IMG/VR virus record: IMGVR_UViG_3300031994_000011
Span: 64,001 to 128,000 of that record
DNA length: 64,000 bases
Source: a virus
Taxonomy: Duplodnaviria; Caudoviricetes
Direction: 5' to 3' (one strand)
Shown: one piece after another, positions 4,151-64,000 of the stretch
Layout: each line of letters opens with the position of its first letter
Position numbering within the stretch: position 1 is the first letter of the stretch
The notes under the pieces: generated by a model
What the model saw: the letters and a program-made list of their open reading frames with translations, nothing else
Databases searched by the model: none
Told to the model about the DNA's origin: nothing
Translations under genes and position numbers: made by a program

Positions 4151-5341
4151 ATGGAACTTTTAAGGAAACTTGATGTTGAAAAGTATTGGTCTTTTCCGAC
4201 TTCATATAGTCAAGAAAAACGAGAAAATGAAATTAAAGCTATGATAATGGATGGTCGTCATTATTATCAATTAAAAACCGACGGTAATTATAGTGCTTTT
4301 GTATGTGATTTTGATGGAGAAAAGCATATTATTAGCAGAGGAAAATCTACTGTTACTGATGAATATTGCCTTCTTGAAGATAGACTATTTTTCTTTAACG
4401 CTGTAGCAAAAGTATTTGATAAACCTACTAGATTGATGGGTGAAATCTATTATGACGGTGGAATTGATCGTCAGGTAGGCTCTGTATTGCGCGCGCTACC
4501 AGAGAAGTCCAAAAGTATTCAAGATAGAGATTATTATCTTGAAGCGCAAAAGAAAGTAAAATTCACCGCTAAAGACAAACGAGATATTGAAAATAATGAA
4601 TTTTTTAATCAAAAGTTAAAGTGGAGAATTTTTGACTGCTGGTACTATGATGGTGAAAGCCTCATGAAAACTCCTTGGATTGAACGTCAAAAATATGTTA
4701 AAATGGCCGCCGAACGTATAAATCATCCATTAGTTTCATATGTTCCATATTATCCAATGGATAATAATTTTTATGATAATCTTGCTAAGATTTTTGAAAA
4801 CGGCGGTGAAGGAGTAGTTTGCTATCTTGATAGCGGCATTCCAGAACCTTCTAAAAGAACAGCACATAAAACTCTTAAAGTTAAACGAGAAGTAGAACAT
4901 CTTTTGGATGTAGTCTTTACTGGTCTTGATGAATGTAAAAAGAATTATGATGGAAAAGAGCTATCTTCTTGGCCTTATTGGGAGAACACTAGAACTGGTG
5001 AAAAAATTCAAGGACAATTTTTTGGAGAATTTCAGAATGGCGGCTCTTATATTCCAGTAACTCGTAATTATTTTTATAATTGGCCAGGCGCGGTATTTTG
5101 TAGCGCTTATGATGATAATGGAGAATTAGTTCCTATCTGTAAAGTCTCTAACCTAACAGATGAATTAAAAACTTCATTAAGAGATAGTTTTTCTACAGAA
5201 TGGATGCTTTGTCCCGCAACTATTGGCGGCATGGCGTTAAGTGATGCTAATGGTCTTTCTGTTAGACATCCTTATTTAAAATCTATTCGTAAAAATGATC
5301 TTGATCCAAAAGATTGTACTTTAAAGAAAATACTATCATAA
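4151..5341 (+). CDS. ATP-dependent DNA ligase
   Basis: KTDG adenylation motif, GEIY, IFD, GEGVV, KVK, RHP. Confidence 0.85.
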   Translation: MELLRKLDVEKYWSFPTSYSQEKRENEIKAMIMDGRHYYQLKTDGNYSAFVCDFDGEKHIISRGKSTVTDEYCLLEDRLFFFNAVAKVFDKPTRLMGEIYYDGGIDRQVGSVLRALPEKSKSIQDRDYYLEAQKKVKFTAKDKRDIENNEFFNQKLKWRIFDCWYYDGESLMKTPWIERQKYVKMAAERINHPLVSYVPYYPMDNNFYDNLAKIFENGGEGVVCYLDSGIPEPSKRTAHKTLKVKREVEHLLDVVFTGLDECKKNYDGKELSSWPYWENTRTGEKIQGQFFGEFQNGGSYIPVTRNYFYNWPGAVFCSAYDDNGELVPICKVSNLTDELKTSLRDSFSTEWMLCPATIGGMALSDANGLSVRHPYLKSIRKNDLDPKDCTLKKILS

Positions 5342-5369
5342 GTTATTGAAAAATAACGAGGAGCTATAT

Positions 5370-5981
5370 ATGGATTTAGATTTTTTAACTATACCTGAAT
5401 AGGTTAGTAGTTTAGACCCTGTAAAATTTCAATATTTTAATCAACTTTTTAATCATAGAACAATCATATTAAATCAAGAAATTAGCTAGAATCTCGTATA
5501 GACTGTTTATCTTCCTTTACGAGAATTTGAAACTGATTCTTGTACCGAGCCTATAACTTTAATATTAAATTCTATGGGAGGGTCCGTTTCTGACGGATTC
5601 TTTCTTGCTCATTATTTAACTACTTATTCAAAAGAACTAAATATTATAGTTACAGGTTGCGCGGCCAGTATGGGCGCTGTAATACTCTGCGGAGGTGGAA
5701 AAAATCCTAATGTTCATAGAATGTGCTTCCCAAGTACATATGGACTAATTCATGACGGGTATATTACATTATCTACTAATGAATCTAAAACTGCTTCAGA
5801 TATTATGGCATTTAATGATAAAGTTGATCTCCAAATTAGAGATTTTATTTTAAGTAACACAAATATTACAGCTGAGCAATACGATGCTCAAACACGCCAC
5901 CAATGGTTTCTGACAGCAGAAGAAATGAAAGAATTAAATCTGATTGATGAAATTATTGGAAGTGATAATAATGATAATTAA
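5370..5981 (+). CDS. ClpP-family protease (TAG at 5400, 5487, 5499)
   Basis: RTIILNQEIS*NLV*TVYLPL, LNSMGGSV, AASMG (catalytic Ser), LIH, WFLTAEE; GAGGAG RBS before ATG 5370. Confidence 0.88.
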
Positions 5982-7212
5982 TTTTTTAGATACCTCCGCT
6001 ATTTTAAATGGCGCGCTAACTACATATAAAAAAGATGCTTGTATAAGTTCTATTTCTTTAATGTAGTTATAGAATATAAAAACATCTGCTTTTAAAGACA
6101 ATCAAATTAAGTATCAAGCTAGATAGGCAGTTAGAGAAATCATTGATAATAATAATAATTTCTTTTTTCCTTCTTTCTCTCAAAGATAGATAGAAAAAAC
6201 TTTAAAAAAGTATAATTTTTTATCTAATATAAATGATCATTACATAATTTGTTAGGCCGCACTAATGGCAAAAAGTAGCGCATATTAGGTAAATTTTATT
6301 ACTTGCGATGGCGCGCAATACTTACTAGCAAAAAGAATACCTTCTTTAAATTCAATATATTATGATAAGATATTACTTGATAATTATGAAAATAATTAGT
6401 ATTGTGGCTGGGGTAAATATTATCCTAATGAAAAACAATTATAGGCGCTATATGCCGATCCTAAAATGAATATTTTAAATTGTAAAACCAATGAATATGC
6501 TTAGATTTATTATTAGAATAAATTACAAGATGTTCTTAGATGGTCTGGAAAAGAATACGAACCGTTAAAATATAAGGACATTAAGAGTCGTTTTTTAAAT
6601 GAAACAATTAAGCCATTAAATTTGTAGCAAAAAATGGCTTTTGATTTATTACAAAATAATTAGATTCCTGTAAAATTATTGCCAGGCGCAGTAGGAACAG
6701 GTAAAGATTATCTTATGCTTACTCACGCGCTTGATTTGGTTCAAAGAGGAACTATGAATAAAATTATTTTTGTAAGAAACCTTGTTCCTTTTAAAGATGC
6801 ACCATAGATAGGATATCTTGCTGGTAATTTACAAGAAAAAATTGCTTGGGGCATGGGGCCGCTAGCATCAATTCTTGGTGCTGCAGGATTATAGGAAATG
6901 TAGGCTCAGGATATGATTGAAGCAGTAAACCTTGGCTTTATCAGAGGTATGTCATGGGATAAAACAATTATATATGTTTCTTAGGGTCAAAATATAACTG
7001 GCGGCGGCTACAAGTTATTAGTCAGCAGATGCGGAGAAGGAAGTCAATTATGGGTAAATGGCGATATTCTTCAAACAGATGCTAAACGTTTTTAGGAAAA
7101 TAATGGTATTGATAGATTAATTAAATCACTTAGTGGCGATCCACTATTTGGAATGGTTAAATTAATAAAAACAGAACGTTCTAAAACAGCAGAACTAGCT
7201 TCTAAAATTTAA
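5971..7212 (+). CDS. phoH: PIN-PhoH protein (about 17 in-frame TAG; missing from the ORF track)
   Basis: PIN start FLDTSA..LM*L*NIK; KPLNL*QKMAFDLL; Walker A GAVGTGKD; AP*IGYLAG; FIRGMS; IYVS*GQN; SRCGEGS; NGDILQTD; ERSKTA. Confidence 0.92.
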
Positions 7213-7216: not shown

Positions 7217-7273
7217 GTGGGCGGGAAACCGCCCACTTTTATTTTTGACTTTTTTTAAAATTCATGATATAAT
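7217..7273 (+). terminator. Intrinsic terminator fused to the next promoter
   Basis: GTGGGCGG-GAAA-CCGCCCAC followed by a T-tract running into TTGACT(7245)-N17-TATAAT(7268). Confidence 0.85.
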
Positions 7274-15667: not shown

Positions 15668-17533
15668 GTGGCTTATGATGCTAATTCAATTCAGGTAAGA
15701 GATTTTCGTACTGCCGCACGAACTACACCTGGTATGTATATTGGCGCGGATGGGCAAGATGCAATGTTTAATTGTTTTCTAGAAATTCTTAATAATGCTT
15801 GTGATGAAGCTATTATGGGGCGAGGAAACGAAATTACTGTAGAAGTAAATGATAATGATATTAAGATTTCTGATAAAGGAGCGGGAGTTCCCCATGGAAA
15901 AAATAAAGATACAGAAGAAGTACTCATCGAAATATACACTTCTGCTCATTCTTCTGGGAAATTTGATTCAACTAATTATAAAAGAGTTCGTGGTATGCAT
16001 GGTATTGGGTCCAGTACGGTGTGCGTTTGCTCGGAAATTTTTGAAGTATGGAGCAAACGAGATGGGGCAGAATGGCACCTCTTATTCAAAGATGGCATAC
16101 CGCAATCTAAAACGGCGGATAGAATTCGATCTACAAAAGAAACAGGTACAACAGTGTATTTTAAACCTGATAAAACCATATTCCATCTAAATGATGAAAC
16201 GCCATCTTTTGATAAAGGACGAATTAAAAATGAATTACGTTTAACTAGTTATTTTATTCCAAATGTTACTTTTATCTATAAAACGAATGAACAAGAAGAA
16301 AGGTTCATATCTAAAAATGGGCTAAAAGATTTTGCCGCTGATAATATCACAAAGCCGCTTCATAAACAATATATTTATGGAACAAAAACATTTGATGGCG
16401 ATATTGATATTGAAGTATTTGCACAATGGACTACAGGACGTGAAAAATGTTATGTATTTTCTAATGGCGCTTTAAATAGTGGTGGTGGTACTCCTGTAAC
16501 AGGAATGAAAGCGGCTTTTACGCGCACTATTAATGATCAAGCAAAAGAAAATTTTGATAGTGAAATGATTCGTAAAGGACTAGTCACAATAATTAACATT
16601 AAACACCCACATCCAATATATCAAAATCAAGTTAAAGATAAAATTCAAAATCAAGAACTTCGTGGTTATACGCAGACAACCTTTACAGAAGCGATTAAAG
16701 ATTGGATTATAAAAAATCAAAATGATTTTAATAAAATTATAAATATACTTATTACTGATAAAAAAGCAGAAGCCGCCGCGGAAAAAGCACGCCAAGGTGT
16801 TCTTAACTTTGAGAAAAAAGAAACAGAGCATAAAAAGCAAAAAATAACTTCTTCTGATAAGTTTAAAGATTGCGAAAAGCATGGGCAAGATTCAATGTTA
16901 ATTATATGTGAGGGTAATTCAGCACTTGGCGGCCTCATGCCCGCACGAGACGTCAATAAGGAAGCTCTGTATGCTGTGCGTGGTAAGGTAAAAAATCTAT
17001 TAAAGCATCCACTTGATGAATGTCTTGAAAATCAAGAAGTTTCTGATATCATCATGGCACTTGGATGCGGCATTCAAGAAAAGTATAATAGTAAAAAACT
17101 TAATTATGGTAAAGTAGCTATCGCAACAGATGGCGACGTCGATGGTTTCTCAATTATGTGCCTTATCTCAACGCTATTTTATGTGTTGATGCCAAAATTT
17201 ATTGAAGAAGGCAGACTATGCTGGCTTCGTGCACCACTTTATAAAATTGAAAAAGGTGGACAAAAATTATTCGCCTATAATGATGAAGAGCTAGAAAAAA
17301 TTCGGCAAGATCGCACGAATTGGGAAATTACTCGCGCAAAGGGTCTTGGTGAACTTAATGCTGATGATATGGAGTGTTCTATGCTTCATCCTACAGAACG
17401 AAGGCTTGAAGTATTAACCATTCACGATGCTGAAGCTGCGGCAGCAAGTATTATGATGTTAATGGGGCCAGAGGTTGAAGGTAGAAGAAAATTCCTATTT
17501 GAGAATGTGGATTTTAATATATTAAATAATTAA
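15668..17533 (+). CDS. gyrB: Type IIA topoisomerase subunit B (GyrB/ParE)
   Basis: PGMYIG, N.CDE, GMHGIG, EGNSA, RGKVKN, TDGDVDG, KGLGE. Confidence 0.93.
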   Translation: MAYDANSIQVRDFRTAARTTPGMYIGADGQDAMFNCFLEILNNACDEAIMGRGNEITVEVNDNDIKISDKGAGVPHGKNKDTEEVLIEIYTSAHSSGKFDSTNYKRVRGMHGIGSSTVCVCSEIFEVWSKRDGAEWHLLFKDGIPQSKTADRIRSTKETGTTVYFKPDKTIFHLNDETPSFDKGRIKNELRLTSYFIPNVTFIYKTNEQEERFISKNGLKDFAADNITKPLHKQYIYGTKTFDGDIDIEVFAQWTTGREKCYVFSNGALNSGGGTPVTGMKAAFTRTINDQAKENFDSEMIRKGLVTIINIKHPHPIYQNQVKDKIQNQELRGYTQTTFTEAIKDWIIKNQNDFNKIINILITDKKAEAAAEKARQGVLNFEKKETEHKKQKITSSDKFKDCEKHGQDSMLIICEGNSALGGLMPARDVNKEALYAVRGKVKNLLKHPLDECLENQEVSDIIMALGCGIQEKYNSKKLNYGKVAIATDGDVDGFSIMCLISTLFYVLMPKFIEEGRLCWLRAPLYKIEKGGQKLFAYNDEELEKIRQDRTNWEITRAKGLGELNADDMECSMLHPTERRLEVLTIHDAEAAAASIMMLMGPEVEGRRKFLFENVDFNILNN

Positions 17534-17534
17534 A

Positions 17535-17813
17535 ATGATAATTTATAGATATGAAAAAGAAGATGGCGGAGGGCCATATTTTACACCTGATGGGCATTCA
17601 AGGACGTATACAGATATTTATTTTAATGATGATATATTATGTGGAGCTGAATCAATTGATAATTTAAATAAATGGTTTATAGAAAGAAATGCTACTAAAT
17701 TAATTCAAGATTGTAAAATTGTCAAATATGAAGGAGAACTAATTCATAAATTTATTCATAGTGGAGAGGCAGTGATTAGAAAATCAACTGCTAAACAATT
17801 AACTTCTCCTTAA
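17535..17813 (+). CDS. Hypothetical protein
   Basis: IYRYE...GPY; flanked by a duplicated gyrB end. Confidence 0.65.
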   Translation: MIIYRYEKEDGGGPYFTPDGHSRTYTDIYFNDDILCGAESIDNLNKWFIERNATKLIQDCKIVKYEGELIHKFIHSGEAVIRKSTAKQLTSP

Positions 17814-17891
17814 AATTATGTATAAGTTTATAGATAATTATAATTTTTGAGAATGTAGATTTTAGTATTTTAAATAGATAAGGAGAATAGT

Positions 17892-18071
17892 ATGAATAAT
17901 AATTCGCGTAATCGTGGTATTGGATTTATGGGCTTGCTTACAATAGCATTTATTGTATTAAAACTATGTCATGTTATAGAATGGTCTTGGCTTTGGGTAT
18001 TGTCTCCACTATGGATTTCATTTGTAATTATTATGATGATTGCTATTTGGCTTGCGAATAAATTTCAATAA
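17892..18071 (+). CDS. Small membrane protein
   Basis: GIGFMGLLTIAFIVLKLCHVIEWSWLWVLSPLWI; AGGAG RBS. Confidence 0.8.
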   Translation: MNNNSRNRGIGFMGLLTIAFIVLKLCHVIEWSWLWVLSPLWISFVIIMMIAIWLANKFQ

Positions 18072-18162
18072 ATTTAAATTGGGATAGGGCTTGGACGTTA
18101 GAAATAAAAGAAAATTTCTTATTTAAAATGTTGATTTAATATCTTAAATAATTGAGGTAAAT

Positions 18163-18510
18163 ATGAATATTGAGAATGCAAAAATTACAAATACACGTAT
18201 TTCTATGGCTGACCATGGTTGCTTAACTTTTGATTTAACACTTGAAGGTGCCGGTTGGGGTTGTAATTACGGTGGATATTGTATTGGTAATGGATACTTA
18301 GGTGCTAAAGAATTTACAGCAAGTTCAGGTAATGGACTCGTGGCTATAATGAAGATTATGGATACAGTCGGTGTAGAGTGTTGGGAAGATTTAAAAGGTA
18401 AATATGTTCGATGCAAGATAAATGATTGGGGAGGAACTATTGATGAAATTGGTAATTTAATAGAAAATGAATGGTTTAATATTCGTGAATTTTTTTCTAA
18501 TAATAATTAA
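18163..18510 (+). CDS. Conserved phage hypothetical protein
   Basis: NAKI..DHG.LT..GGY..VGVE.WEDLKGK.VR. Confidence 0.75.
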   Translation: MNIENAKITNTRISMADHGCLTFDLTLEGAGWGCNYGGYCIGNGYLGAKEFTASSGNGLVAIMKIMDTVGVECWEDLKGKYVRCKINDWGGTIDEIGNLIENEWFNIREFFSNNN

Positions 18511-18550
18511 CAATAATTAAAATTTCTGATATATAATAAGAGGTATAAAA

Positions 18551-18745
18551 ATGGATAATAAATATAAAATTATGGATATTTTATTAGAAGAATTTAAATA
18601 TATTTACTGTGATAGTTGTAGACTTCAAGACAGTGAAAATTGTGAAGGATGCTATAGAAAATATATTAATTGGTCTTTGTCATCAGAAACAGCAGCGAAT
18701 ATTGCTGATAAAATTATAAATGTATTTGAAGATAATAAACCATAA
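18551..18745 (+). CDS. Small Cys-rich hypothetical protein
   Basis: CDSC..CEGC; GAGG RBS. Confidence 0.6.
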   Translation: MDNKYKIMDILLEEFKYIYCDSCRLQDSENCEGCYRKYINWSLSSETAANIADKIINVFEDNKP

Positions 18746-18752
18746 ATTTTGA

Positions 18753-19001
18753 ATGGATGATAATATGAATGAAAAAGAATTTATAGCAGCTATAAATGAG
18801 ATTATTCTTAGTTCAACAGCTAATGGTGGTGATCCCGGTGGTCCTTATATGACGGAGCAAGAATGGGCACAAAAAAGTATAGAAAAATTATTATATTTAT
18901 TAAATTTAAATAATAAATACCATGTTGAATTAGTTAGAAATTTAAGATATGATCTCACAACTTGGATAGATCCAATTCCGCAAATAGTTGACAATAATTA
19001 A
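18753..19001 (+). CDS. Hypothetical protein
   Basis: Open frame, GGDPGGPY. Confidence 0.6.
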   Translation: MDDNMNEKEFIAAINEIILSSTANGGDPGGPYMTEQEWAQKSIEKLLYLLNLNNKYHVELVRNLRYDLTTWIDPIPQIVDNN

Positions 19002-19038
19002 ATTTTATGTTATAATATAAAATGGGAGATAAGAAGAT

Positions 19039-19800
19039 ATGGCACAAAAAATTGATATGACGGGTTGGATATTAAGTGAACATGGTGTCCCAGACAGTAT
19101 TCTCACCGTCCTTGAAGAAGATAAAGAATACCGTATTTTGCATAATATTAAATTAACTGAAGCATATTGGAAATGTCAATGCAAATGTGGAAATATAATC
19201 AGTGCACGAGGCTCTTCACTAAGAAGAGGAGATATTTTATCATGCGGATGTATTCAAAAGCAGCGTACATCTGCTGCCAGAAGATATAATTTAGTTGGAC
19301 AACGCTTTGGAAAATTATTAGTATTAGAATATAGTAAAACTTATACAAGACCAAATGGAAAAAGTGGAGATGCCATTTGGAAATGCCGATGTGATTGTGG
19401 CAATATAACATATGTAGTAACTAATAGTTTAATGAGCGGTCAAACAACAAGTTGTGGTTGTAATGTTTCATCCGCAGAAGAATTAATTAGAACCATATTA
19501 ATAAAACATAATATTCCATTTGAAGTTCAAAAACGGTATAATGATTGTAGAGATAAAAAGCCATTACCTTTTGATTTTTATATAAATAATAATTTTTTAT
19601 TGGAATATGATGGGGAACAACATTATAAAGAATGGAATCGTGGAGAATCAACTCTGGCAGATAGACAAAAACATGATAATATTAAAAATAAATATGCAAA
19701 AGATAATCATATTCCTTTAAAACGTATACCATATTGGGATTATAATAAAATAACATTTGAAACTATTATGGATGATACGTTTTTATTAAAGGAGAAATAA
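19039..19800 (+). CDS. Free-standing putative homing endonuclease (CxCxCG repeats plus Vsr/DUF559-like nuclease)
   Basis: Two WKCxCxCG..SCGC units, then E..I..L..PFDFY..LEYDGEQHY..D..K..A..LKRIPY; own promoter at 18988-19016. Confidence 0.75.
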   Translation: MAQKIDMTGWILSEHGVPDSILTVLEEDKEYRILHNIKLTEAYWKCQCKCGNIISARGSSLRRGDILSCGCIQKQRTSAARRYNLVGQRFGKLLVLEYSKTYTRPNGKSGDAIWKCRCDCGNITYVVTNSLMSGQTTSCGCNVSSAEELIRTILIKHNIPFEVQKRYNDCRDKKPLPFDFYINNNFLLEYDGEQHYKEWNRGESTLADRQKHDNIKNKYAKDNHIPLKRIPYWDYNKITFETIMDDTFLLKEK

Positions 19801-19802
19801 TA

Positions 19803-22181: not shown

Positions 22182-22193
22182 AGGAGAATAAAA

Positions 22194-22655: not shown

Positions 22656-22800
22656 CTAAAAGCAAAAATTACGCTATAATATAATTGTTGAAAGGGAGAA
22701 AAAGTCCTTCAACCTCGGTAAAAAGAAAAAATTATTATTTGACTTTTTACGAAAAATACATTATAATAGATATATAAGAAGGCGGGAGACTGACTTCTTA
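22652..22800 (+). promoter_or_regulatory. Tandem SigA promoters, each followed by a hairpin
   Basis: TTGACT 22652/TATAAT 22675 and TTGACT 22739/TATAAT 22762. Confidence 0.75.
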
Positions 22801-22841
22801 ATATAAAAAAATATTTTAAAAAGAAAAAGGAGATTATTACT

Positions 22842-23159: not shown

Positions 23160-23176
23160 TGGAAGGCTTGATGGAA

Positions 23177-23231
23177 GGCAGTCCGAAAGGGCTGCTTTTT
23201 ATTTGACTAATAATAAAATTTGAAATATAAT
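23177..23231 (+). terminator. Terminator fused to promoter
   Basis: GGCAGTCC-GAAA-GGGCTGCT plus T-tract; TTGACT 23203/TATAAT 23226. Confidence 0.78.
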
Positions 23232-49700: not shown

Positions 49701-51409
49701 GAATCATCAATTTTTTCAATTTTTGCAGTAGCCTTTTCATACTAACTTTCATCAGATGCCATTTTTCTACTCCAAACACTTTTTACACGTTTAATATACT
49801 ATAATGGCTAATAATCATAAGTTAGATAAACCGAACGAGAGAAAGTAGAAGACTATGAATTAGAAGAATTATTTAAAACTATATTATTTACCTTAATTAA
49901 ATTATTAAACTAATCGAACTAAAAAGTTCCAAAAATCTAATCTGCAACCCTATCTTTTCCAGTTGCAGTATAAGAATATTTTCTATATATATGAAAACTT
50001 TCTGGTATAATACCAGTTTGACTTATATTTATAAAATAATTATTATTTTCTCCAGTATTTTGTAACAATATTCCATTTGTCGGCCGCTCTGCAGTAACAT
50101 GCAAAATTCCAGTATCCTCAGTAATACTATTTAATAAAGCACTCGCCTAAGTATATCTCTATTCTGCTAATTTTCTTCCTCTGTCATAAGTTGCTAAGTC
50201 GGCCTATACATTTAAACGAATCTATTCTAATTTTAAAATTTCTTCGCTTAATGGACCTAACTATTCATTTATTGTAGCAATTTTTCGCTAAAACTCAAAA
50301 ACTCCATTATATTGTTCATCCGTTATTGAACCAACAGTATGCATATAATCAAAATTTAATAAATAGTCTTCACCACTTTTATTTGCGGCAGTATCTAAAA
50401 TTGTAATAAAGCCATCTCTACTAGTATCACTATTTACTGGTTTTATATACATTTTTGTTATTAAATTTGTACTATCAGCTTCTCTACTAATAGAAGAAGT
50501 ATTATATGGATATGTAAAATCTAATGCTCCATATGTCTAATTTAAAAAATTATTATAATAAACTACTTTTTTACCTATTATATTATAATTATTATCATGT
50601 TCATATACATATTTACAATGAACACCAAAGGTCTAAGCAATAGTTTGTGTTAAATTATAAACATTACTTTCAGTAACATCTAATAATCTCTATTTTTCTT
50701 TTGCGGCCTAAATTTTTTTAGGTAATCCAGTTGTTCTATCCCATGAAGAAACATAAGTATCCTAATATACTTTATCACTACTTCTTCCTTTATAGCCATC
50801 CCAATTCATATTTACCTAATAAGTCCAATATTTTATACGATCAAAAATTTTATTATTCCAATATTGAATTGTCGCCCGTGGCTAAGAAATATTAAGCTAC
50901 TATCTTTCTGTTTCTGTCGAATTAGACCAAATTCCATATTCATTCATAAATTCGTCTTGAGATAAATCAATTTTATAGCCAATTTTCCCTAACTAATGAA
51001 AAGCAAGCCCTTCACAAGAAACTTCACAAGTTAATACGCCATTCTAATGTGTCTATGTAACCTTAGTTATAATAAACTAAAAAACTTCTTCATCCTATGT
51101 TGCGCGCTACTATGATACTTGTCTAACTGCATCTTTTTTATTGATAATAACTTTTATTTTTCTTGTACTCGCTACAATAACACCATTTGTAGTATTGTAC
51201 CAAATAGGATTCTAAATTCTTTTACCATCCTATAATATATACATCGGAATTTTAAAAGTAAATTCCTGAGTTCCGTCATCAACTATTTTTAACTCGGGTT
51301 CTTGAATCTGTCCTTTATTCTCTAAAGTGGCATACTTCAAGACGGATATAAATCCGTCTTGAAGCGTCCAAATAGAGACTTCATAATTACGAATATCACT
51401 TGAAACCAT
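43772..51409 (-). CDS. Large tail tip/baseplate-fibre protein (about 2545 aa, many TAG)
   Basis: I scanned most of the frame and found no TAA/TGA from ATG 51409 (AGGAGG RBS) to TAA 43772. Motifs YNLTQTIA*TFG, ITKMY, ALR*GYW, TAITPNGINADLITTGQL; beta-rich C-terminus. Confidence 0.8.
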
Positions 51410-51433
51410 TAATCAGTCTCCTCCTTTTTACCC

Positions 51434-53272
51434 TTAATAATACATATTTTTATATTCTATACCAAAATTAGTTAATGGTGCCTCAATAGGTAAATCTGTA
51501 TAAATGATATGAGCACAATGTTTACTTTCTTCATTGTTTTCATCCCATTCAACAATTACGCCACTATCAATTAATGGATAGTTTGTCTCCTATAAAAATA
51601 AGTAAGTTGATCTAACCATATCTCCAACATTTTCTACTTGTATAGAATATTCACCATTAAGTTGATACTCTATTTTTCCAACACAAATTCCAGTTTTTGA
51701 GTTTATAGAAAAAGAACCAGAACACATACTCTATTCATTATCAACAGTCTTCATAATAAAATTTTTCATATCATTACATACAGACATTAATGTTGTTTCA
51801 TCTAGTACATCCAAACCACTTAAACGCTGCTAAACGATATTTAAAGCATATGCTCGCGCGCCATTATGTGTAACTTTATCCCTTATATAAGTTTTTACAT
51901 CCTGCCATGAACTTCCTATTATACTTTCACCAGTTTGATCTTTAACATGTGCTAATTTATCAAACCAATATAAAACTTGATTATATCCATTCCAAGCCCC
52001 TGGTGTAGTAAAACGAAATTCATGTTTATGCTAACTTTCAATAATAATAGAATTATAAGTTTTTCCATCTTCATCTGGCGCATATTTATTTAACGGATAC
52101 TTAATATATGGAATCTTATTCTAACCAGTCTATAGTATCGGTTTCATTGTAAAATATAGAGTTGGATAACTTGGTGCATTGCCAGCATAATATAAATAAG
52201 CTATATTATTACTATCTTTACCACCACTTAATATAACATTAGTACCCTATCCGTCTTCAATAAAACTATAACTACCAATCGCTGGAGCATATGTAACGCC
52301 AACTCTTGAAATCATTACTGCTGCATATGGTGGATTTGTTCCATCCTATGGACTAGCTAATGCCGCTACAGTTCTAATATTACCAAGAGCATTCTTATAC
52401 TAAGTACCCTAAATTTTTATATCTCCACCAATAAATAAATTAGAATAAATTCTAACCATATTCGCAGTAAGAATATTATCCTATAAAATAATTTTTAATG
52501 CATCATTATTACTCATTATAGGATTATTATTATCATTCGCATCAGCCCATCTATATTGATAAAATTCATCTTCTTCTAAATCCTATCCAGTGCCACTCGA
52601 ACTCTAACCACGCTATACTATTTCGCCATCCACTAATGCAACCTTATATCTTTTTCCTAATAAATTCTATAAAGTATACCATAATGGATCATCACATATA
52701 AAACTTATTTTAATATCGCCTTTATATAACGTAGTTGGTATATTATAAATGGTCCCGGCAATAACTTTTTGCTATCTCCCCTAAAATACTAACATATTCA
52801 TAGCTGGCGGCGCCTAAACTCTTGCTAAAATTCCGCGATTGGGATGCTATGCTCTTACTAATTGTCTAATTTTTCCAGGAGCAAACCATGCTTTAAATTT
52901 ATCTAATTGTGTTTGAGTCATACCATCTGTAGATAATAAATACTAAAAAACTAATGGTTTTAAATGCGTTCCCCAATAGAATTGGCCATTTAAAACATTA
53001 TATTCCTATGTTAAATCTTCAAAATCACTATATAAATTATTTTGCATTCGCTAACCTTCTGTCACGCGAATAATTCCAAAATCCTAAATATATTGCCCGC
53101 CAAAACTAAAACTTATAAAAGAACGATACATGAAGGGGAGCCGAAGCTCCCCATCATGTGTTGCCTAATAAACTTGTCCTCGACCTGAAAAACTCTATTC
53201 TGGTATGTATTCTATATTCTATGGCATTTGAGAATTTCCAGGTCTTAGATATCCAACATTATTACCATACAT
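51434..53272 (-). CDS. Distal-tail (Dit)-like protein (about 612 aa, many TAG)
   Basis: AGGAGG RBS; SFISFSFGG..I*DFG, GQFYWG, A*HPNR, YKGDIKISFICDDPLWY; lies right after the tape measure gene. Confidence 0.72.
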
Positions 53273-53297
53273 TTTGCTATTTCCTCCTTTACCTCCA

Positions 53298-56200
53298 TTA
53301 AACTTGACGATATCCACTACGGAATCCTTGTCTAACCAATACGTTCTAAATTTCTCTTGCTACATTTTTAGCATCGTTAGATTGAATATTAAAGTTAATT
53401 GTAGTATCTTGCACCATGTTTCTTTGATTATTATTAACAACATCATTTTCAATAGTACCTTTAATATTATCAGTTAAATTACTAATATCATTCAATGTCT
53501 AAGTCAACGTATCCGCACCTCTAAGAGATCTCTTAAATGACTACTTCATATTTTCAGGTATGATTGCTGCTTTATCCTCTAATGAAGTATCTACAGTAGG
53601 AGTTTGAGTGGTTCCAGCCCTAGTTCCCTAAGTTCTACTTCCTCTAAGAACAGTAGTCCTACCACTACCACCACTACCACCGCCACCAGTAATAGGCTGT
53701 GTAGACTCTTGAGACTATTTTTTCTATTTTTTAGGCATAAGATCTTTGATAGTTTGCTATTGAGCTTTTGCATCATCGCCAGTTCCCTTAACATATTCAT
53801 CAAAGCGATCTTTAACAGTTGGGTCTTGTTTATCCCAATTTTCTCCGAAAATAGACTACATTGCAGCATCTGTTGTGCGCCATCCAATATCTGCGCTACC
53901 TTCAATAGCTTCTTTAATAGTATCATTCATTTTGCTCCAGAAAGGCTATAAATCTTTTCTATAACTTACCCATTGCTATGCTTCTTTTTGTATCTAAAGT
54001 TTTTGTTCTTCAAGTTGTAATGCAGAATAACTTTGATAATCTTTTGTGTTTGTTAATAAGAAACTTACAATGTCCTATGCATCTTGACTCATAATACTAG
54101 TAACTTCTTCCCATAATAAACCATGCTCTTTTTGATACTATAAAGTTTCATTCATTACATCTAATTGAGCATCTAATCTCTAAAGCTGTGCATCAGAAGC
54201 TTGTTGCATAGCATCAATGGCCTATTGTTGCATATTAAAATAAGAATCACGCTATTTTTCATCTAATTGCTGCTGTAAAGAAGAAATCTCAGAAGCTGAA
54301 CCACCAGTACGCTGTAATATTAAAATTTGTCTACGAAGTTTATCTATCTATTTGTTTTCTTTTTGATCCTAATACATTTGTTGTTCACGGTCAAGCTGAT
54401 CCTGCAGTCCCTTTAAATATTTCTAAGAACTCTTTTCAATGGCATCTCTCTAATCTTGTAACTTATCAATAATTTCTTTCTATCTATCTTCTATTGCCTT
54501 TACTACTGCATCTTCAACTTTGCGCTGATTATCTACTATCTATTCTAATATTCCATTTATATCAGATTCTAAAGATAAGATATTCTCAGTAGACTAACGA
54601 TAGCTATCATATAAACTATCTAATGTTTCTTTCCATCCATCTACACTATCCCAGAAATTCTGCATCATCTACATATATAATTCATTATCAGATTTATCAC
54701 CTTTATTTTTAAAATCAATAACTGTACCATCATCATTATATTTAAGAACTTCTGTATCAAATCCTATAGATTTCAAATATTGTATTTGTTTATCCGCGCT
54801 TTCTGCCCAACCAGTAATTTTACCATTAACATCTCTAGTAGTTAATTTTTCAAGTACATCTAAGCCTTTTCCTAAACCAGAAGTATATTGTTGTAAGCCA
54901 TTTTCATCATAAGTAAATATATTACTATAAGTAGAAGCAGCAAGCTAAGCACGTTTTCTATCATACCAACTCTTTTGTAGATAAATCAATTCTTTTGTGG
55001 CAGTAATTTGTTCCATTAAATTTTCTAACTACTTTCTACGACTATTGTAAATGGCTTGTCCATTGGCAATTCTATCTGATTCCAGCTTATCTCTTAATGT
55101 TTGTTGATGTGTAATATCTTGTTCTAATTTATCAATTTGTCTTGTTAAATTGTACCAACGTTCGATTTCAGCAGTAGTGGTTTTAACTTCTTTATCTTTA
55201 TTTCCACCACCACCGCCTCCGCCGCCACCGCCACCAGCGGCCTATTTACCGGCAAGAGAACCAAGATCTTGAGCAGAAGCATTAAGTATTGTCTACCACA
55301 TTGCTCTTATTTGCTTCAATGCTGCTAATGCCGCAGAAGCGCTAGCAAAAGCAGGGCCAACAGTTCCAGTAGCAAGAGATACAGCTACGCGCTAATTAGT
55401 TACAGGTTTACCATGTCCACCTTTTCTACCACTAAGTAATCTACGAGTCTGTAAATGATTAAATACAATAGCATCTGGCGGAAGGTCTACCATTTCAGCT
55501 CCATTTTGACCTACGACATTATATTTACCATTAGCAACAACTAATTCAGGTCCAAGCTAGCCCATAAGAGTCTTTTGATTACCACCAGCTAAAGCAACGT
55601 TACCTTTCGCGGCAATAGTTATCTATTTATCTTTTGCAGGACTTTGACCTTTTACAGTAGCAGGAGAATTTTCACCGCCACCGGCCATTTTAACCTATAT
55701 AGTAGCAACTATTTGAATTAATTTTTTATATGGAATTGAATTTATTGCACTAATTAAACTATAAATTTTCCCAGATCCACTAGATGGAATACTATTCATA
55801 GCAGAAGCAAGCGTTCCTATTGACCCAGTCGCATTACTAACTCCTTGAGCTACTGCTTGTGCCATTGCTGCAGCACTTTGACTTGCATTATTCGCAGCAT
55901 CAACAACTTGTTGAGCACCACTAATAGCTGACTAAAAATCAAAACCAGTTTGGGTTTGGCCATTCGTCACTTGCCCCATACTTGAATTTTTAAAAGCAGC
56001 AGCAATATTATTTATAATATCTGCAGGAGAAGAGGTATCGGAAACAACAGCACTGTCTTTTTTATTGCCAGCCTTATAAATATCTTTCTAAGAAATTTTA
56101 TTATTTAAACTATCTATTGCCTATGCTATTTCATTACCTGTATCTGCTATTTTCTTTGCTGTAGTCTGATCACCATTTCCAGTAGAAGGTGGCTATCTTA

Positions 56201-59200
56201 ATTGTGAACCGCCCATTTCACTATCTTTTTTTCCTTTTACGACAAAACTAGCTTTACTTTCTGTCTCTTTATCTTTAACTTGCTAATTTAAATTAGCAAC
56301 TATAGTATTAACTCCTTCTGACATCTATGCTAATGGAGCATTACTCTTTTCTATTTGTTGTGTATCCTTAGGCGAATTTACTGGCTCATTATTATTAGTA
56401 GAAGTATCAGAAGTTACATTAGAAGGATTTTCATTATCACTTTGTTGATATAAATGTGTGATCATTTCTTCTACTGAATGATATATCTAGGTATTAGCTT
56501 GTCCATTCATCCCAAGAACTTGTAAAAAGCTTTGTAACTCAGCAATACTTTTATCTCGTGTAACAGTAGAACCGGTAAAAGACCCATCAGCATTTTGTTT
56601 AAAGCCCCATACAGGAACTTCACCTTCAGTAATAAAATCATTTCTATCATTTTTTTGTATAATAATACTACCATCTGATAAATATGCACTTGTATAAAAA
56701 ACCCCTTCTTTAGCCTTATCAGGGAGAACTTTTATATCTGTGGGATTATCGCCTTGTAAAATATCTGACATATTACCTTGTTTATATTCATAATCATAGG
56801 TAGGTGATTTAACCTAAGGCTACTACTTATTATCACTGTCATTTTTAGTAGGCGGCCCATCTTTTTTATTTGCAAAATATCTTGCATCTGCTGCCCTACG
56901 TGCTGCTCGTAACGCAGCCTATCTTTCAAGTAAACTTTTATTATACTCACTTTGAAATAAGGCTTCCTATCTATCATATCCATTATTACTACCAACTACT
57001 ACACCATTATTAGGTAGAGTTGGATTATCTTCAGAGCCACCGCCATTTTCATCTGATCCATTGCCATTTTCATTTGATTTACCAAAAGCTTGTATGGCTT
57101 CTTCTGCGGCAGCACCTAAATTTAAAATTGCAGCAGCTGTTTCATTAGAAGCCTACGCTAATGTTTTTTCTTGATCACTTACTTGTTTCGCGGCTTCAGT
57201 GATTCCCTAACCAGCATTTTTTGCTCCATCAGCTACGTTATTAAGACCACTATTAGCATCATCCGCGGCATCACCAGTTCCTGCAACTGCATTTTCGGCA
57301 CCAGCAGCTGCTTCTGCCATTGCCTTCTATGCTGCTTCTTTTTCTTTTTGCGCCTCTTCTGCATTTTTACCATCTAATAAAGCCTAAATATAAGCCATAG
57401 CTCCTTCTACTTTAATATTAAACTAAGAAAGCTAAGCATCTGAATAGATCTCTTTAGCCTAATTAATTTGTGTTTTCCATTCTTTTAATGCTATTAATTG
57501 AGATTCAAGTTGCCAATTTTCTGCTTTAATCGCAGCTTGATATGTCTGATCAATAAGAGGATTTATAAGCTTTAAATCATATGGTTGAGGAATTTTCTTT
57601 GGTGGCTATGATGGACTTGATGGTGATGACGGTGAATCATCAACTGTTTTATCGGTAAAGATGTTCGCTCTTGGAACTCCAGTTGGGTTTCTTGGATCAT
57701 AAAATTCACCGGGTAATTCAGAATCTTCACCAAACTTAGGACCTGTAGAAGAATTACCTCCACTATTTTTATCATCATTTTTAAATGCCCATTCTCCAGC
57801 TTCATCTAATTTAGTGTGTATATTAATTGTAAGTTCAGAACTTCCTTTAGCAAGACTCTATATTAACTTTGCATATTTTGCATCTGATTCATCTTTTACA
57901 TGTAATTTTAAATTCCATTCTTTTGTCTCTACACCAGTAAGTCCCTATTTTGCTTTTTCAAACTATTGTTGCGTCATTGGGCTTTTACCATCTTCAACAA
58001 ATTTAAAACCATATTTAACCTAAAAATCTAAATGTTCTTGAGTGGTTTCTCCCCATTGTTTTTCTGCTTCTTCATAAGTTAAATCTTTAATATCTTTTAT
58101 TTGTTTTGATGTCAATGATGCAGCAGAAGTTTTATCTAGTGTATATATAGTCTTAATCCCTGTCTTTATAAGCCATATTTGATAATCATGTTCATTAAAT
58201 TCTGGTACTTTTCCTTCTCCATATTGCTCTAACATTGCTTTATCATATAATTGTCTCCAAGTATCATTTATATCGGAACTATAATTTTTTCCATCTGCGC
58301 TATATTGTACACCATTTTTAGGGTCTACACGCATATTATATTGAATACCAGTTTTCGTTGTTAAAGTTATAGTAGTAGCTTGTGTTTTTATATCATAATG
58401 ATAACCATATTTTTCTAAATCTTTAATAAAGGGATATTGCTATACTATCATCTGAGCATTTATAGCCGCCTGCACTTCATCTTTATTACTATAAGAAAAA
58501 GTCTTCCCACCAATAGTAACTTTACCATCTTTACCAAATAAAACTGTTGTACCTTCATGAATAACAAGAGTCCTTCCATCACCAAGATTAATATCAGCAG
58601 TTAATTTACTTTCTTTAGCAATTTGTTTAATTGTCCTTATTAAATTCTCTGTACTATAATCACCAGATATTGCCATCTGATATAAACTATTAACAAAAGC
58701 AGTATATGTTTCAGGAGATAAATTACCTTTTTCAAAAACTTCTTCATAAGCACTTTGAAGTTTATCAGCATCTCCACCCGCTGCTTCTATCATCTTATAT
58801 AATGAAACACCCTAAATTGATAAAGCCTTTAAACTTTTTTCCAAATCTTTATTTGTTTTTGCCATTGCTATAATTTCTTGCGCAGCATCTTTATATGGCT
58901 GTTGAAATTGATATTTACCATCAAGTTTAATAGGATTACCGTTATCATCAGTCATAAAAATCTCTGGCAATTCAATTATAACATCATCTGTAGTAACACT
59001 TCCTAATTTTTCCATAGCAACAACAGATTCCAATAGAAGTATCATACCATCAATCATTTCTATTTGAGAAGTCGCCATTGCTTTAAGTGCTTCATGGAAA
59101 TTGGTACTCATATCTGCGGCTCCACCCTACATTTGAAGACCAATTTTACCCATATTAACCATAGCGCCCTAACCATCAATATTTATTAAATTGCTAAAAG

Positions 59201-62200
59201 CCTAATTTATTAGTCGCGCGGCACCATCAGTATCCTTAGCAATCTAATATCCATAAAACATTAATGGCTAACCAGTAATAGTAGCTAAATTTTGGAACTA
59301 ATTAACTAAATTATAAAAGTCATCAACTGCCATTAAATGATAGCCAGTAGCATTTACTAAATCTTCTGGTTTAGTCGAAGTAATTTTTTTACCAGTAGCA
59401 TTATCAAAATATGTAAGCGTCATAGCCTAGTTCATTACTTTATAAGCTTTTCCAATAGAATTTATATAATTTAAAGGCCCTTGTAAATATTCAGGCAATT
59501 TTCTATTCATAAAATCATATTGTTCGGCCTATTGCATTTGAGCCTAAGCAATCTCTTTATAAATACTAAGTCTTTCTCTTAATGCTTGATTATCAGGACC
59601 ATTACTTAATTGCTATTGTAGCGCAGCTATATTAGCCATAGTCTTAGAAATATTCTAGCAGTCCTATCCAGCACCCTATAATGAATCTTTTAATGCTTCA
59701 AATGTTATTTCTGCGGCAACAGTGTCAACATCTTTTAATGCGGTATATAAAGCAATTGCTGCCTAAGTATTTAATTTAATACCATCGAGCGTCATAGAAA
59801 ATGCTGCCTAATTTAGCTATATACCAAGAACATTTTTAGCGAAATCTTGTAATTTTAATTTACCAACATTATCTAAACTACCTTTCAATCCATTAGCTAT
59901 AATATCTGCAAAATTTTTAAATAACTAACTAATTGCATCAGCTAATTCTGCAAGATCTTCTGAAAGCATTAAACTTCCCTATTCAGCAGCATTATAAATT
60001 GTTTGCATTATACCAACAATATTAGCGCCTTCTACTGTTTTTAATATACCATTCTATACATAACCACCATATTGTTTTAATTGATCATTTAATTGTTTTA
60101 TTGAACCTGGTATACTTTGAAGTCCTTTTAATTCTTGTGTATATTGATTCATCCATTTTTGATATTCAACAGAGTCTACTTTATCTTTATTCTCCTCTAA
60201 TGCAGCTATCATTTTAATAAGTTTTTGCTATCTCTAAGTAGTATAATCACTTTCTTTTCTTCCTAGTTCGCTCCATAAATCCGTAACATCAAGCCATTCT
60301 CCGCCAGTTAAGCCACTTAATCCTTCAACTTCCTATCCAATATTTCTCGTTATTTTATTATTTAAATCAACCATGGCTTGATTATATGTTTTCAATGCAT
60401 CAATATATTGTGGACTTCCTGCCTTCCAACCCATCATATTCGCAAAGGCGTTAAAATCAGTTATTCTTAATTTATCTCCGCCTAATAATTCTATAATATT
60501 GGATGCATCTAAAGCATCAACTAATTCCTCAGAAAGCATTATTCCTTGTTTTGTAAGTATCTAAGCAAAAGTATCAAAAGTCATATTAGAAGCATCGCCT
60601 AAAGCATCAATAACAACTTGCTATTTATCTCTTACACTTAAAGTTTTTGCAGCAACACTATTTATTTCTTCTAAAGTCGCATGACCGCTTGTAGTAATTT
60701 TATCTAATGCATAAGCATAAGCTTCATATAAATTATTTATTGATGTAACTACATATTGCCCTTCAGCAATAAGACTAACCGCGCCCGCGCCAGAAACACT
60801 TATTATTTCTGCAGTCGTAGCGTCAATGATACTTCCTGGTGCTGAACCTAATTGCTATAAAGCATTTATATATCTGTCAACCGAACTACGATATAAAGTA
60901 GTTATATTTTCAGCAGTTAAATCAACGCCACCATAATCAGCAATCATTTGCATCATTGCTATTGCATCTGCACCGCCAGATGTAATAATATCAAAAAATT
61001 CACTAAAAGAATCAAATTCGTTAGGAAGTTTTCCTCCTAAAGATTCAACATTTTTCTAAAAATCTTCATATGCTTTTTTTAGAGTTTTATATTGCTAAGA
61101 ACTCCTATCTATAATAGCAGTGCCATCTCCTTTTAATACATAAGGAATATTATCTGCCCATGCCATTACAGCATCTATAAAAGTAGATGAAATTTCTTTA
61201 TATCTTTCTTCAAGTATTTTTTTAATTTGAGCGGTAGAGCGTTGTCCAGAAGTTAATAAATTCATCAAGCCCTATGTTCCACGATATGTTCCATCATCAT
61301 TCTTCTATAAAAGTTCAATAACTTGATCCATTGTTTTTCCATAATGAAGCGCAATTGAAGCAATAGCTTGCTCGTCTAAAGCATTCATATTTGGAATTAA
61401 ATCAGTCATAAAACTATCATAAGAATTTGTTCTCTGATTAGCTAAATAATTAGCATAATAATCCATATATTCTTTACTGTCTTTAGCAAGATTAGAACCA
61501 AAATTGCTCATAAATTCATTCCAATCAGTAATAATATATGAATCTACTCCAGTTCTCTTTAAAAATTTACTTCCTTCCTAAGTTAAATTACCAGCTTCTG
61601 TTAAATAATCACTTAATTGTTTATTTTGAGCAGTAACAAAAGTAGAAATAGCATCTAAATTTAAAGAATCTGCATAACTTAAAAATTCTAATGAACTACT
61701 ATCTTGTAGATTATTATTTTTTATTAAATTAGCATAACTATCATTTAATGTACTTAATCCAATAGTTCCATTATTAAATGCTTCTTCTACTGTATAATAT
61801 ATATAACTTGCTGCCTGTATAAACTCTTCAGCATCATCAATAACAATTTGCCCATTAGTATTTAATTCATTCGCCCAATCTTGATTAAGAGTGGCTAATA
61901 TATTAGCAGTATCACCAGCAATAGTCATTTTACCAGAAAAAGAAGATAAATCACTAACTGCATTTGTCATAATAGAATTAAGCTGTTGATTAATTGCACT
62001 ATTTATTATACGGTAAGTGTTATCATCTATTTTTTCATCTTCATGTTGTTTACTATAAAAAGATTGTAATGTTGTTAATACACCAATAATATTATTACCA
62101 GCAACTGTTAAAACACCATTTTGTATTGTTGCCATAGACCCCATTAATTGAGCATTTAAACTATTTAAGTCTTCATTACTTAATTTAGAAGTTAAATAAC

Positions 62201-64000
62201 TAAGATTAAATTGTTTTCCCACAGAAAAATCTTTTAAAGACTCAATTTCACTTTGAATATTAGATTGAACATTTTCACGAAATTCAATCATAGAGCTTCT
62301 ATAGGAACTAATTTCATTTAAATACGCATCTGAAGTTTTATCCCAACCAAAAGAATCAGCTAATACATTCTAATCTAAGAAACGAATCTAACCATTTCCA
62401 GTTATCTAAGCATAGCCACCAGCAATCCATTGTTCGACAGTACTAACAAACTATTCTGCATGCCCATAAGTCTCAAATAAACCAGATAAATCTGTTAAAG
62501 ACATAGAACTCATTTTTCCAACATATGCCTAACCAATTTTTCCAACATCTCTAACATACGCAGACTGTAAATATTCTACACCAGTATTTAAAATATCTTC
62601 TGGAGCAGCGATACCTTTTACAAGACTATCATGATAAGCTTTAAGTGCTGCAGTAGTATCTCCAACTTTTAAAAGAATATTATTATTATCAACTATATAA
62701 CCAAGATCGCTATGCGCTTTTAAAAATGCTGCTGCATCAGCGTCAAGAAGCTGACCCTAAAAACCACGAATTGCCTAAAGCATTCCTTCTGTTGAAGCAT
62801 ATAAATATTTTTTTCTTTGCTAACTTGTTAAAGTAATTCCTTGACGTTTAGCCCATTTCTATGCTAAATTTAATTTTTCAATTCCATTTTCACCTTGAAG
62901 TATTTTTAACTATTCTTCTACAGTACTATTTATCTACTAAGACGACATTGTAGTAACCTTACGATAATACTACGTCATTGCCTACTTTAAAACTTTAACA
63001 TCTTTTTGAGTTCTATCAGAATCCATAAATCCTTCTATATCTACTTTTTGAGCTAAAGTTTGTTTTGTTAAATTATCAAAAATAATTGCAGTCTAACTCG
63101 TCCAAAGTCCGGCTTCTCTTAATTGATTCTATTGAGCTTCTAAATAATTTAAATATGCTTCTTGTTTTAATTGAAAACTATTGGTTAAACTGTCCCATTC
63201 AAACAAATCGCCAAAATTACTTGCTTCTTCTTTACCACTAAGTTTCATTAATTTATTATATTTCAACATAAAATCTGACATTTCAGAAGTTTCCATTGTA
63301 CCCTAGGTTAATAATGAGGTTGCAGAGCTTACATCAGATAAAAGCTAATCAACTTGTGAAAAAATACTTTCTTGGGCTTCTTTTGTAATACTTATACCAT
63401 ATTTTTCTTTTAATGCTTTTATTTTTTCTAAAGTAATTGAAAAATTTCCATTACCTTCATCAGTAAAATACTACGCAACTTCTTCTTCTGAAAGATTAAA
63501 AATCTTCATTATATTGCCAATATCATCGACAGTTAAATTATTTCTATTTTCTATTAATCCCTAAAGAAGAGTTTCTTTTGATTTCTAAAATTTATTTTTT
63601 TGACTGGCGACCCAAGCATCAATATACTAAGAAGTTTGTTTATCTACATCTCGGACCATTGTACTAACAAAATGTTCAAAATTGTTTATTTCATAAGTTC
63701 TATATCCAGTTCTTGTAAAGTATTGTTGTCCTAATTCAGTTAATTCACCAGTTTCAGTATTTATATAATCTTCTACTTTTGCACCAATTGTAGTTAAAAA
63801 TTCATTTATATTATCTATTGTAATATCAGATGTAGAGACTAAATTTAGCGCTGCAATAGGACGATTATTGTTAGCTTTTATTTTTGACACGGCGAAATCA
63901 TTTAATGATTTTAAACTAACAGTTCCCTATTTATAGCCTTCTTGGGCAGATTTATATAAGCCATTAACTGCATCTAAATAATCTTGTGCAGTTCTAAGAG
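53298..64000 (-). CDS. Tape measure protein, start beyond the window (>3500 aa, many TAG)
   Basis: Track fragments at 56487, 58020, 58440, 58812, 60333, 61305, 61578 and 63627 share one frame. Helical, Ala/Gln-rich; AKG..LMG*LGPELVV..G..GAEMVDL motif; ends in TAA 53298. Spot-checked only, not every codon. Confidence 0.82.

Follow-up and report, generated by a model that had tools for sequence, protein, structure and literature searches.

Why would a virus for which TAG is a sense codon keep it strictly out of some of its genes, while packing it into their immediate neighbours? The question is raised by the genome of a ruminant-gut phage (IMG/VR record IMGVR_UViG_3300031994_000011; ~172 kb, ~31% GC), and more specifically by a window of 64,000 bp – bases 64,001-128,000 of one 171,958-bp contig, to which all coordinates refer unless marked as genome positions. 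The contig is rated by IMG/VR as complete with direct terminal repeats, and its ends overlap by 128 bp. An earlier note on this DNA, made from its letters alone, had claimed that TAG usage in the window is partitioned by function – absent from core replication genes, dense in tail and nuclease genes – and had proposed that the phage switches genetic code during infection in order to hold back late or toxic proteins. Here, this partition is examined gene by gene, in the window, in the rest of the genome and in related phages. Gene functions were assigned via Pfam and PHROGs, and the phage is called G000 where it is compared with its IMG/VR relatives (G003-G007 and L138).

TAG is kept out of the reading frames of specific genes

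The 12 core replication and nucleotide genes, with 5,977 codons of which 482 are GAA or GAG, contain not a single in-frame TAG. Genome-wide, TAG makes up 0.20 of glutamate-type codons, that is, TAG/(TAG+GAA+GAG) in open reading frames (ORFs) of at least 100 amino acids, which gives this absence a probability of ~1e-47, and the TAG share is far from homogeneous among genes (chi2 = 760, 123 degrees of freedom, p = 1.6e-92). As many as 72 of the 142 ORFs of at least 100 amino acids have no in-frame TAG and a normal complement of off-frame TAG. Computing this share per gene, as the earlier note had suggested (GAA+GAG is the right denominator), upholds the partition, and every per-gene count of that note was reproduced, including the zeros for ligase, GyrB, GyrA, AAA_24, DnaB, primase, RecJ, both DnaE parts, NrdD, NrdG and dUTPase.

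There is next to no chance that base composition, strand bias or miscalled genes have produced this pattern as an artefact. Outside the reading frame, TAG occurs as often in core genes (16.1 per kb) as in TAG-rich genes (15.7), a rate from which ~144 in-frame TAG would be expected in the core genes on composition alone; protection of the TAG-free genes is confined to their reading frame. TAG share is weakly correlated with GC (rho = -0.19, p = 0.035), as such an artefact would have it, but not with GC at third codon positions (GC3; rho = -0.02), so AT content, singled out beforehand as an explanation that might undo the proposal, does not fully account for it. Gene length and protein conservation (rho 0.03) were likewise considered as causes, and neither these nor GC and GC3 account for the TAG share. 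Strand mutation bias had already been dismissed by the earlier note, rightly, since TAG-free and TAG-rich genes alternate on one strand within one predicted transcription unit. Finally, reading through TAG recovers full-length domains in PhoH, ClpP, RuvC, portal and tape measure proteins, with TAG columns aligning to glutamate, and yields 36 ORFs of at least 150 amino acids, compared with 24 under the standard code.

The partition is nevertheless one of genes rather than purely one of function or time. Core replication genes are TAG-free and tail genes in the window are dense in TAG, as claimed, but the tail-tube gene, which lies outside the window, has none, and neither does a 359-aa gene at the capsid position, while an SF2 (ResIII) helicase, also outside the window, has 25 (15 in its G005 copy). 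Similarly, the description of nuclease genes as dense fits the GIY-YIG gene (27) and RuvC (9) but overreaches, since neither RecJ nor the HNH endonuclease has any. The portal gene has 13 TAG and the endolysin gene six. The permease and Dam genes have one each. The 359-aa gene encodes, with moderate confidence, the capsid protein: there is no Pfam or PDB sequence match and its AlphaFold model is weak (predicted local distance difference test score of 57), but the Foldseek matches listed are all capsid or encapsulin shells of the HK97 fold, 43 of them with E <= 1e-3.

TAG means glutamate

Judged from protein alignments and tRNA features, this phage reads TAG as glutamate and not as glutamine. 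Six TAG columns in PhoH, the Walker B position included, are occupied by glutamate in 111-119 of 120 homologues; database copies of PhoH show glutamine at these columns because they were called with code 15. The same residue is found in 28/28 relatives at ClpP codon 52, and in 18/24 at codon 26 of the deoxynucleoside monophosphate (dNMP) kinase. Across the genome, the TAG substitution profile against G005 has a log-likelihood of -541 for glutamate vs -711 for glutamine. Moreover, glutamate codons amount to 5.45% in TAG-rich genes, where adding TAG brings the figure to 8.27%, vs 7.42% in TAG-free genes.

The phage has its own tRNA(CUA), 13.4 kb upstream of the window (genome 50570-50643; ARAGORN, and Rfam RF00005 with 55.3 bits), whose D-arm and 4-nt variable loop are, from the sequence, of tRNA-Glu type; separate tRNA-Gln(UUG) genes are present. 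The parallel with code-15 phages that had been drawn for this DNA therefore does not extend to the code itself, which is TAG=Glu. Directly upstream of tRNA(CUA) is a sigma-A-like promoter, and the plus-strand genes around it (genome 45642-55244) have no TAG save for one gene with a single one, which means that the code-change machinery is written in the standard code. Neither a release factor nor a glutamyl- or glutaminyl-tRNA synthetase (GluRS, GlnRS) is encoded in the phage genome, so release factor 1 (RF1) must be either swamped or neutralised, by means as yet unrecognised.

The tRNA genes of this phage have a further peculiarity. Several of them (genome 50647-50901, 55951-56100, 60815-60932 and 62100-62233), one directly downstream of the suppressor tRNA, have anticodon-loop inserts of 27-75 nt that are called as introns by ARAGORN, with Rfam tRNA matches of 141-148 nt.

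TAG-free and TAG-rich genes share predicted transcription units

The anatomy of the plus-strand block is particularly telling. In a first unit, which runs from one predicted promoter to one predicted terminator, dNMP kinase, ligase, ClpP and PhoH have 1, 0, 3 and 17 TAG, respectively, which bears out the claim that TAG-free and TAG-rich genes alternate in one apparent operon. In a second unit, the GIY-YIG gene (27) is followed by three small ORFs (0, 2 and 0), dUTPase (0), RuvC (9) and an ORF of phrog_1401 (2). Since genes of both kinds share predicted promoters and terminators, discrimination between them must act at translation. Plus-strand promoters matching at least 11 of 12 consensus positions are in clear excess (50 vs 7.2 +/- 2.4 expected), and near-consensus sigma-A promoters are found in front of the suppressor tRNA and of the structural and tail operons as well. 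The features of the window are collected in Table 1.

Table 1. Predicted genes and transcription signals of the window, with their in-frame TAG counts
Feature	Position	Strand	TAG and remarks
Sigma-A-like promoter (11/12)	259..287	+	Ahead of ORF311 (0), ORF790 (0) and ORF1156 (23)
ORF311 and ORF790	upstream of ORF1156	+	0 each
ORF1156	1156..3555	+	23, or 32% of Glu-type codons; 799 aa
Perfect TTGACA-17-TATAAT promoter with TG extension	3539..3567	+	Heads dNMP kinase-ligase-ClpP-PhoH; ribosome-binding site, then ATG at 3587
dNMP kinase	3587..4141	+	1 as sense, codon 26; true start 3587
ATP-dependent DNA ligase	4151..5341	+	0
ClpP-family protease	5346..5981	+	3: codons 19, 48 and 52
PhoH-like ATPase	5944..7212	+	17, or 52% of Glu-type codons; one encodes the Walker B Glu
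Strong intrinsic-terminator-like hairpin	7217..7236	+	8 pairs (7 GC), then T run; closes the PhoH unit
Next promoter	7245-7273		After the PhoH-unit terminator
Replication block: GyrB, HNH homing endonuclease, GyrA, AAA_24, DnaB, primase, RecJ, DnaE N-part	15668..33047	+	TAG-free
HNH homing endonuclease	19039-19800		0; between gyrB and gyrA; own perfect sigma-A-like promoter 18988-19016
ORF22194 and ORF23270	within 15668..33047	+	1 each, codons 11 and 20; sole TAG carriers in the block
LAGLIDADG endonuclease ORF	33143..34102	+	3; inside the ~1.2-kb insert splitting dnaE
DnaE C-part	34264..35856	+	0
ORF35859	35859..36941	+	8; 360 aa; no function assigned
NrdD and NrdG	37378..39763	+	0
Terminator-like hairpin	39949-39982	+	Precedes the GIY-YIG unit
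Sigma-A-like promoter (11/12, TG)	39991-40019	+	Start of the GIY-YIG unit
GIY-YIG homing-endonuclease-like ORF	40052..41023	+	27 in 323 codons; densest gene of the window
dUTPase	41808..42620	+	0
RuvC-like resolvase and phrog_1401 ORF	42620..43734	+	9 and 2
Bidirectional terminator-like hairpin	43742..43773	.	Between plus-strand block and minus-strand tail block
Two large ORFs 3' of the tape measure gene	43772..53452	-	2,545 aa with 96 (43772-51409); 672 aa with 27 (51434-53452)
Tape measure gene, 3' part	53298..64000, on to genome 136032	-	110 in the window, 195 overall; 6,244 aa

The same genes are recoded in a relative

Homologues of PhoH and of the capsid candidate reveal several hundred related contigs. 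The order dNMP kinase-ligase-ClpP-PhoH-permease is kept in 31 related IMG/VR loci. Ligase has no TAG in any of the 28 relatives that have the gene, while PhoH has 2-4 TAG in 9/30 and ClpP 1-3 in five. In L138, whose PhoH is 76% identical, the counts are 1 for dNMP kinase (also at codon 26), 0 for ligase, 0 for ClpP, 10 for PhoH and 24 for the ORF1156-like gene. The suppressor tRNA is missing from two complete siblings, G003 and G004, whose portal (65-68% identical) is encoded without TAG. G005 (163.5 kb) possesses a tRNA(CUA) homologous to that of G000, and its portal gene contains eight TAG. G006 and G007 have two in-frame TAG in PhoH and no BLAST match to the tRNA(CUA) of G000, and may use another suppressor or give TAG another meaning.

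It is the comparison with G005 that shows the partition to recur. Among 74 reciprocal-best orthologues, TAG shares are strongly correlated (rho = 0.71, p = 2e-12), and TAG is present in both copies of 24 genes and in neither copy of 33, with 12 and 3 discordant (Fisher odds ratio 22). The correlation persists (rho 0.66) upon removal of the shared TAG sites, which means that independent gains have landed in the same genes of both lineages. The capsid candidate, the tail tube and several conserved small genes of the virion block are TAG-free in both phages, whereas ORF1156-like (19 TAG in G005), GIY-YIG and RuvC genes are recoded in both. Of the genes that had been flagged as late-acting on account of their TAG, ORF1156, the GIY-YIG ORF at 40052 and RuvC are thus the better founded. 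The label is fragile for PhoH, ClpP and ORF35859, in which TAG marks tolerance and no fixed late role.

The host probably reads TAG as stop

The nearest bacterial homologues of the permease, found by profile scan in metagenome-assembled genomes of ruminant Clostridia (32-42% identity), point to the one candidate host order covered here; a first contig scan with the permease gave no match. Of 101 genomes belonging to this order, 96 have an RF1 that scores above its curated cut-off, and BLAST with the suppressor tRNA found nothing in five of the permease-match genomes or in 301 sampled Clostridia, bar short matches to the T-arm. Taken with what the portal genes of G003 and G004 show, these results make it likely that the host uses the standard code and reads TAG as stop.

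If instead the host itself read TAG as glutamate, there would be no switch, and the TAG-free genes would reflect codon preference or recent acquisition. This is extremely unlikely. Besides the RF1 and tRNA searches, it is contradicted by the many ORFs that lack TAG in frame only, by the possession of a phage-encoded tRNA(CUA), by the siblings that lack both this tRNA and TAG in the portal gene, and by the TAG-free genes themselves, which are core and syntenic, not recent imports.

What might the partition do?

The best explanation, and in our view probably the correct one, is that TAG is read as glutamate by tRNA(CUA) and is tolerated only in genes whose products are needed neither early nor in excess of suppression. 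By analogy with the model of Borges et al. (bioRxiv 10.1101/2021.08.26.457843), translation would terminate at TAG in the uninfected host, suppression would rise during infection, and the delay would be what selection favours. Standard-code genes would be translated at once, while tRNA(CUA) builds up, and TAG-bearing genes would then become translatable. A gene could tolerate TAG provided its product is (i) not needed before tRNA(CUA) outcompetes host RF1 and (ii) not needed in amounts beyond suppression capacity. Three classes of genes would ensue: (i) those with no TAG (early, replication and nucleotide genes, neighbours of the tRNA, and the highest-copy virion proteins, i.e. capsid and tail tube), (ii) those with one, often 5'-proximal (some of the middle genes, dNMP kinase and permease among them) and (iii) those with TAG at 20-60% of glutamate codons (low-copy tail, portal and lysis proteins, some homing endonucleases, RuvC, ORF1156 and PhoH). 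TAG would then be a per-gene delay or limiter laid over transcription, and the absence of TAG from the most abundant proteins would follow from a slight cost that each TAG still incurs.

The position of TAG within genes is suggestive only. In G000, the mean relative position of TAG at glutamate-type sites is 0.385 vs 0.508 +/- 0.027 for the null, in a test limited to orthologue-aligned regions as a guard against over-extended starts, and in the plus-strand block of the window the first TAG occurs at 0.076 vs 0.271 +/- 0.056 expected. Such a 5' bias could reflect selection for early abortion of translation. TAG in the last few codons, where it might act as a stop with a back-up stop, occurs in 12 genes vs roughly 7-8 expected, which is not significant.

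Several observations weigh against this explanation. The promoters are consensus matches, hence predictions that are no proof of function. In G005, non-shared TAG show no significant 5' bias (P = 0.25), and the base that follows TAG is the same as after other NAG codons (p = 0.95), with no signature of selection against RF1. The G005 orthologues of PhoH, ClpP and ORF35859 have no TAG, which is thus not tied to function in these genes. Lastly, the yield of full-length protein scales as s^k, where s is the read-through per codon and k the number of TAG. For the tape measure gene with its 195 TAG, 99% read-through per codon would give 14% full-length product (0.99^195) and 95% only ~5e-5; it is unlikely that simple competition with RF1 reaches ~99%, and no RF1-neutralising factor was found.

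Some of these points would be expected if the partition were only a footprint of constraint with no regulatory role, GAR-to-TAG changes drifting in where they are harmless and being purged from genes that are translated very highly or before the tRNA is available. The variable TAG status of PhoH, ClpP and ORF35859 among recoded relatives, the unoptimised +4 context of TAG and the unreplicated 5' bias are all in keeping with it, as is the lower TAG density throughout G005, which gradual accumulation predicts. Several other observations fit it poorly. In many genes, TAG accounts for 30-60% of glutamate codons, far above the GAG share of 13-17%; GAG being the only single-step precursor that preserves glutamate, this suggests a directional push. 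In addition, both lineages have non-shared gains in the same genes, TAG share does not follow conservation, and there is the 5' bias in G000. Drift of this kind, which overlaps with the tolerance explanation favoured above and differs from it only in what selection favours, is therefore judged unlikely.

A bolder proposition, about which we are equally doubtful, is that the code switch, and not a transcriptional cascade, is the main temporal and dosage programme of this lineage. It is prompted by the near-consensus sigma-A promoters found on early, middle, structural, tail and suppressor-tRNA units alike. The number of TAG and their 5' placement would then set the timing and amount of each product, and an RF1 neutraliser would be needed as well, presumably among the TAG-free early genes, for genes with 96-195 TAG require ~99% read-through.

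A last possibility is that TAG has to do with protection rather than timing, shielding late or toxic genes from expression outside productive infection (defence-triggered early lysis, satellites, co-infecting phages). This has been raised for lysis genes (Borges et al., bioRxiv 10.1101/2021.08.26.457843), and the densest TAG here are indeed in nucleases, the endolysin neighbourhood and tail proteins. However, capsid and tail tube, the proteins most wanted by satellites, are TAG-free, and the sequence offers nothing that separates protection from timing, which leaves this a very improbable account.

Other features of the genome

The minus-strand block of the window deserves its designation as tail genes at least for the 6,244-aa ORF, owing to a PF10145 domain at residues 542-753 (the first 3,333 residues were scanned). 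The 2,545-aa and 672-aa ORFs 3' of it match no family and are putative tail genes by position only. The tape measure protein is shorter in G005 (5,384 aa). Lambda-like tails have roughly 0.15 nm of length per tape measure residue, at which rate 6,244 residues would correspond to an exceptionally long tail of near 0.9 micrometres.

The dnaE gene is interrupted. The intact 1,325-aa DnaE of G005 maps to 30657-33032 (residues 1-792) and 34264-35853 (residues 791-1323) in different frames, on either side of an insert (33033-34263) in which Rfam finds no group I intron. The insert could be an unrecognised intron, or the polymerase could be truly split. ORF1156 has no Pfam or PHROG match. A 444-aa TAG-containing gene was considered as a sigma factor on a PHROG match, which Pfam does not support, and a TAG-gated sigma factor is not claimed.

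Elsewhere in the genome, small TAG-free ORFs at positions 153400-170100 lie behind densely spaced TTGACA-17-TATAAT promoters with TG extensions, perfect or nearly so, in what looks like an immediate-early region. A 358-aa adenylosuccinate-synthetase-like protein (genome 54168-55244) is 93% identical in G005 and, with two nucleoside 2-deoxyribosyltransferases, the dNMP kinase and a xanthine/uracil permease also encoded, it makes a PurZ-type 2-aminoadenine or other modified-base pathway a candidate worth checking. A 352-aa ORF (genome 148179-149237) corresponds, with 80% identity, to part of a 619-aa G005 ORF that may be the large terminase; an insertion may have split the G000 gene.

Relation to known recoded systems and significance

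Late-gene recoding is known in phages using code 15 (TAG=Gln) or code 4 (TGA=Trp), namely crAss-like, Lak, Agate, Jade, Garnet and Topaz phages (Borges et al., bioRxiv 10.1101/2021.08.26.457843). The present phage, which is not crAss-like – the gut phage phAss-1 and large siphoviruses of Bacillota (Enterococcus, Lactococcus 949-like, Bacillus) have 23-41% identity to it in the portal, capsid-position and tail-tube proteins – shares with them (i) in-frame stops in structural and lysis genes, with replication genes and code-change machinery in the standard code, (ii) a suppressor tRNA of its own, (iii) close standard-code relatives and (iv) a preferentially recoded homing endonuclease beside early genes. 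It differs from them in that TAG means glutamate, not glutamine, in that it encodes no release factor or aminoacyl-tRNA synthetase, and in that the partition is resolved per gene inside predicted sigma-A units. Furthermore, the tail tube is preferentially recoded in crAss-like phages (same reference), whereas the highest-copy virion proteins are TAG-free here. The partition is thus the established late-gene pattern in a TAG=Glu variant, and largely a well-documented instance of it.

A distant kin is phAss-1 (Phassvirus; Babkin et al. 2023, PMC10607447), with a portal ~27% and a capsid-position protein ~34% identical. Phassvirus members, likewise large phages of the gut, use TAG in some DNA enzymes as well as in virion genes, have tRNA(CUA) and no dedicated aminoacyl-tRNA synthetase, and show recoding that varies between orthologues of close relatives (PMC10607447); phAss-1 has three suppressor tRNA genes, this phage one. 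TAG was annotated as glutamine (table 15) by the authors of that study (PMC10607447), and in a 29.6-kb stretch of phAss-1 the TAG columns are split evenly, five for glutamate and five for glutamine.

Reading of TAG as glutamate has precedents in eukaryotes. Peritrich ciliates have a UAR=Glu nuclear code. In the nonstop nuclear code of Blastocrithidia, which is also UAR=Glu, a tRNA-Glu-derived suppressor is used as it is here (PMC12153298). These are genome-wide cellular codes with an altered eRF1, as opposed to a partition within the genome of a virus whose host would use the standard code. Phage T4 offers another parallel, for its early and late genes differ in codon choice and are served by phage tRNAs (discussed in bioRxiv 10.1101/2021.08.26.457843); the effect is quantitative and on sense codons in T4, whereas the codon in question here would be a terminator in the host code, making an all-or-none effect possible. 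A full-text literature search found no phage with TAG=Glu. As a practical consequence, pipelines that apply code 15 will mistranslate such genes and misjudge which of them are recoded.

Since an early/late partition is already the leading model for code change in phages, this genome is on that point one more example. What it adds is a single promoter-to-terminator unit with 1, 0, 3 and 17 TAG, independent gains in the same genes, abundant virion proteins that are TAG-free, and a tape measure gene whose 195 TAG set a hard lower bound on suppression efficiency. With such per-gene data, the notion of late-gene regulation by recoding gains testable and quantitative predictions on dose, delay and RF1 neutralisation.

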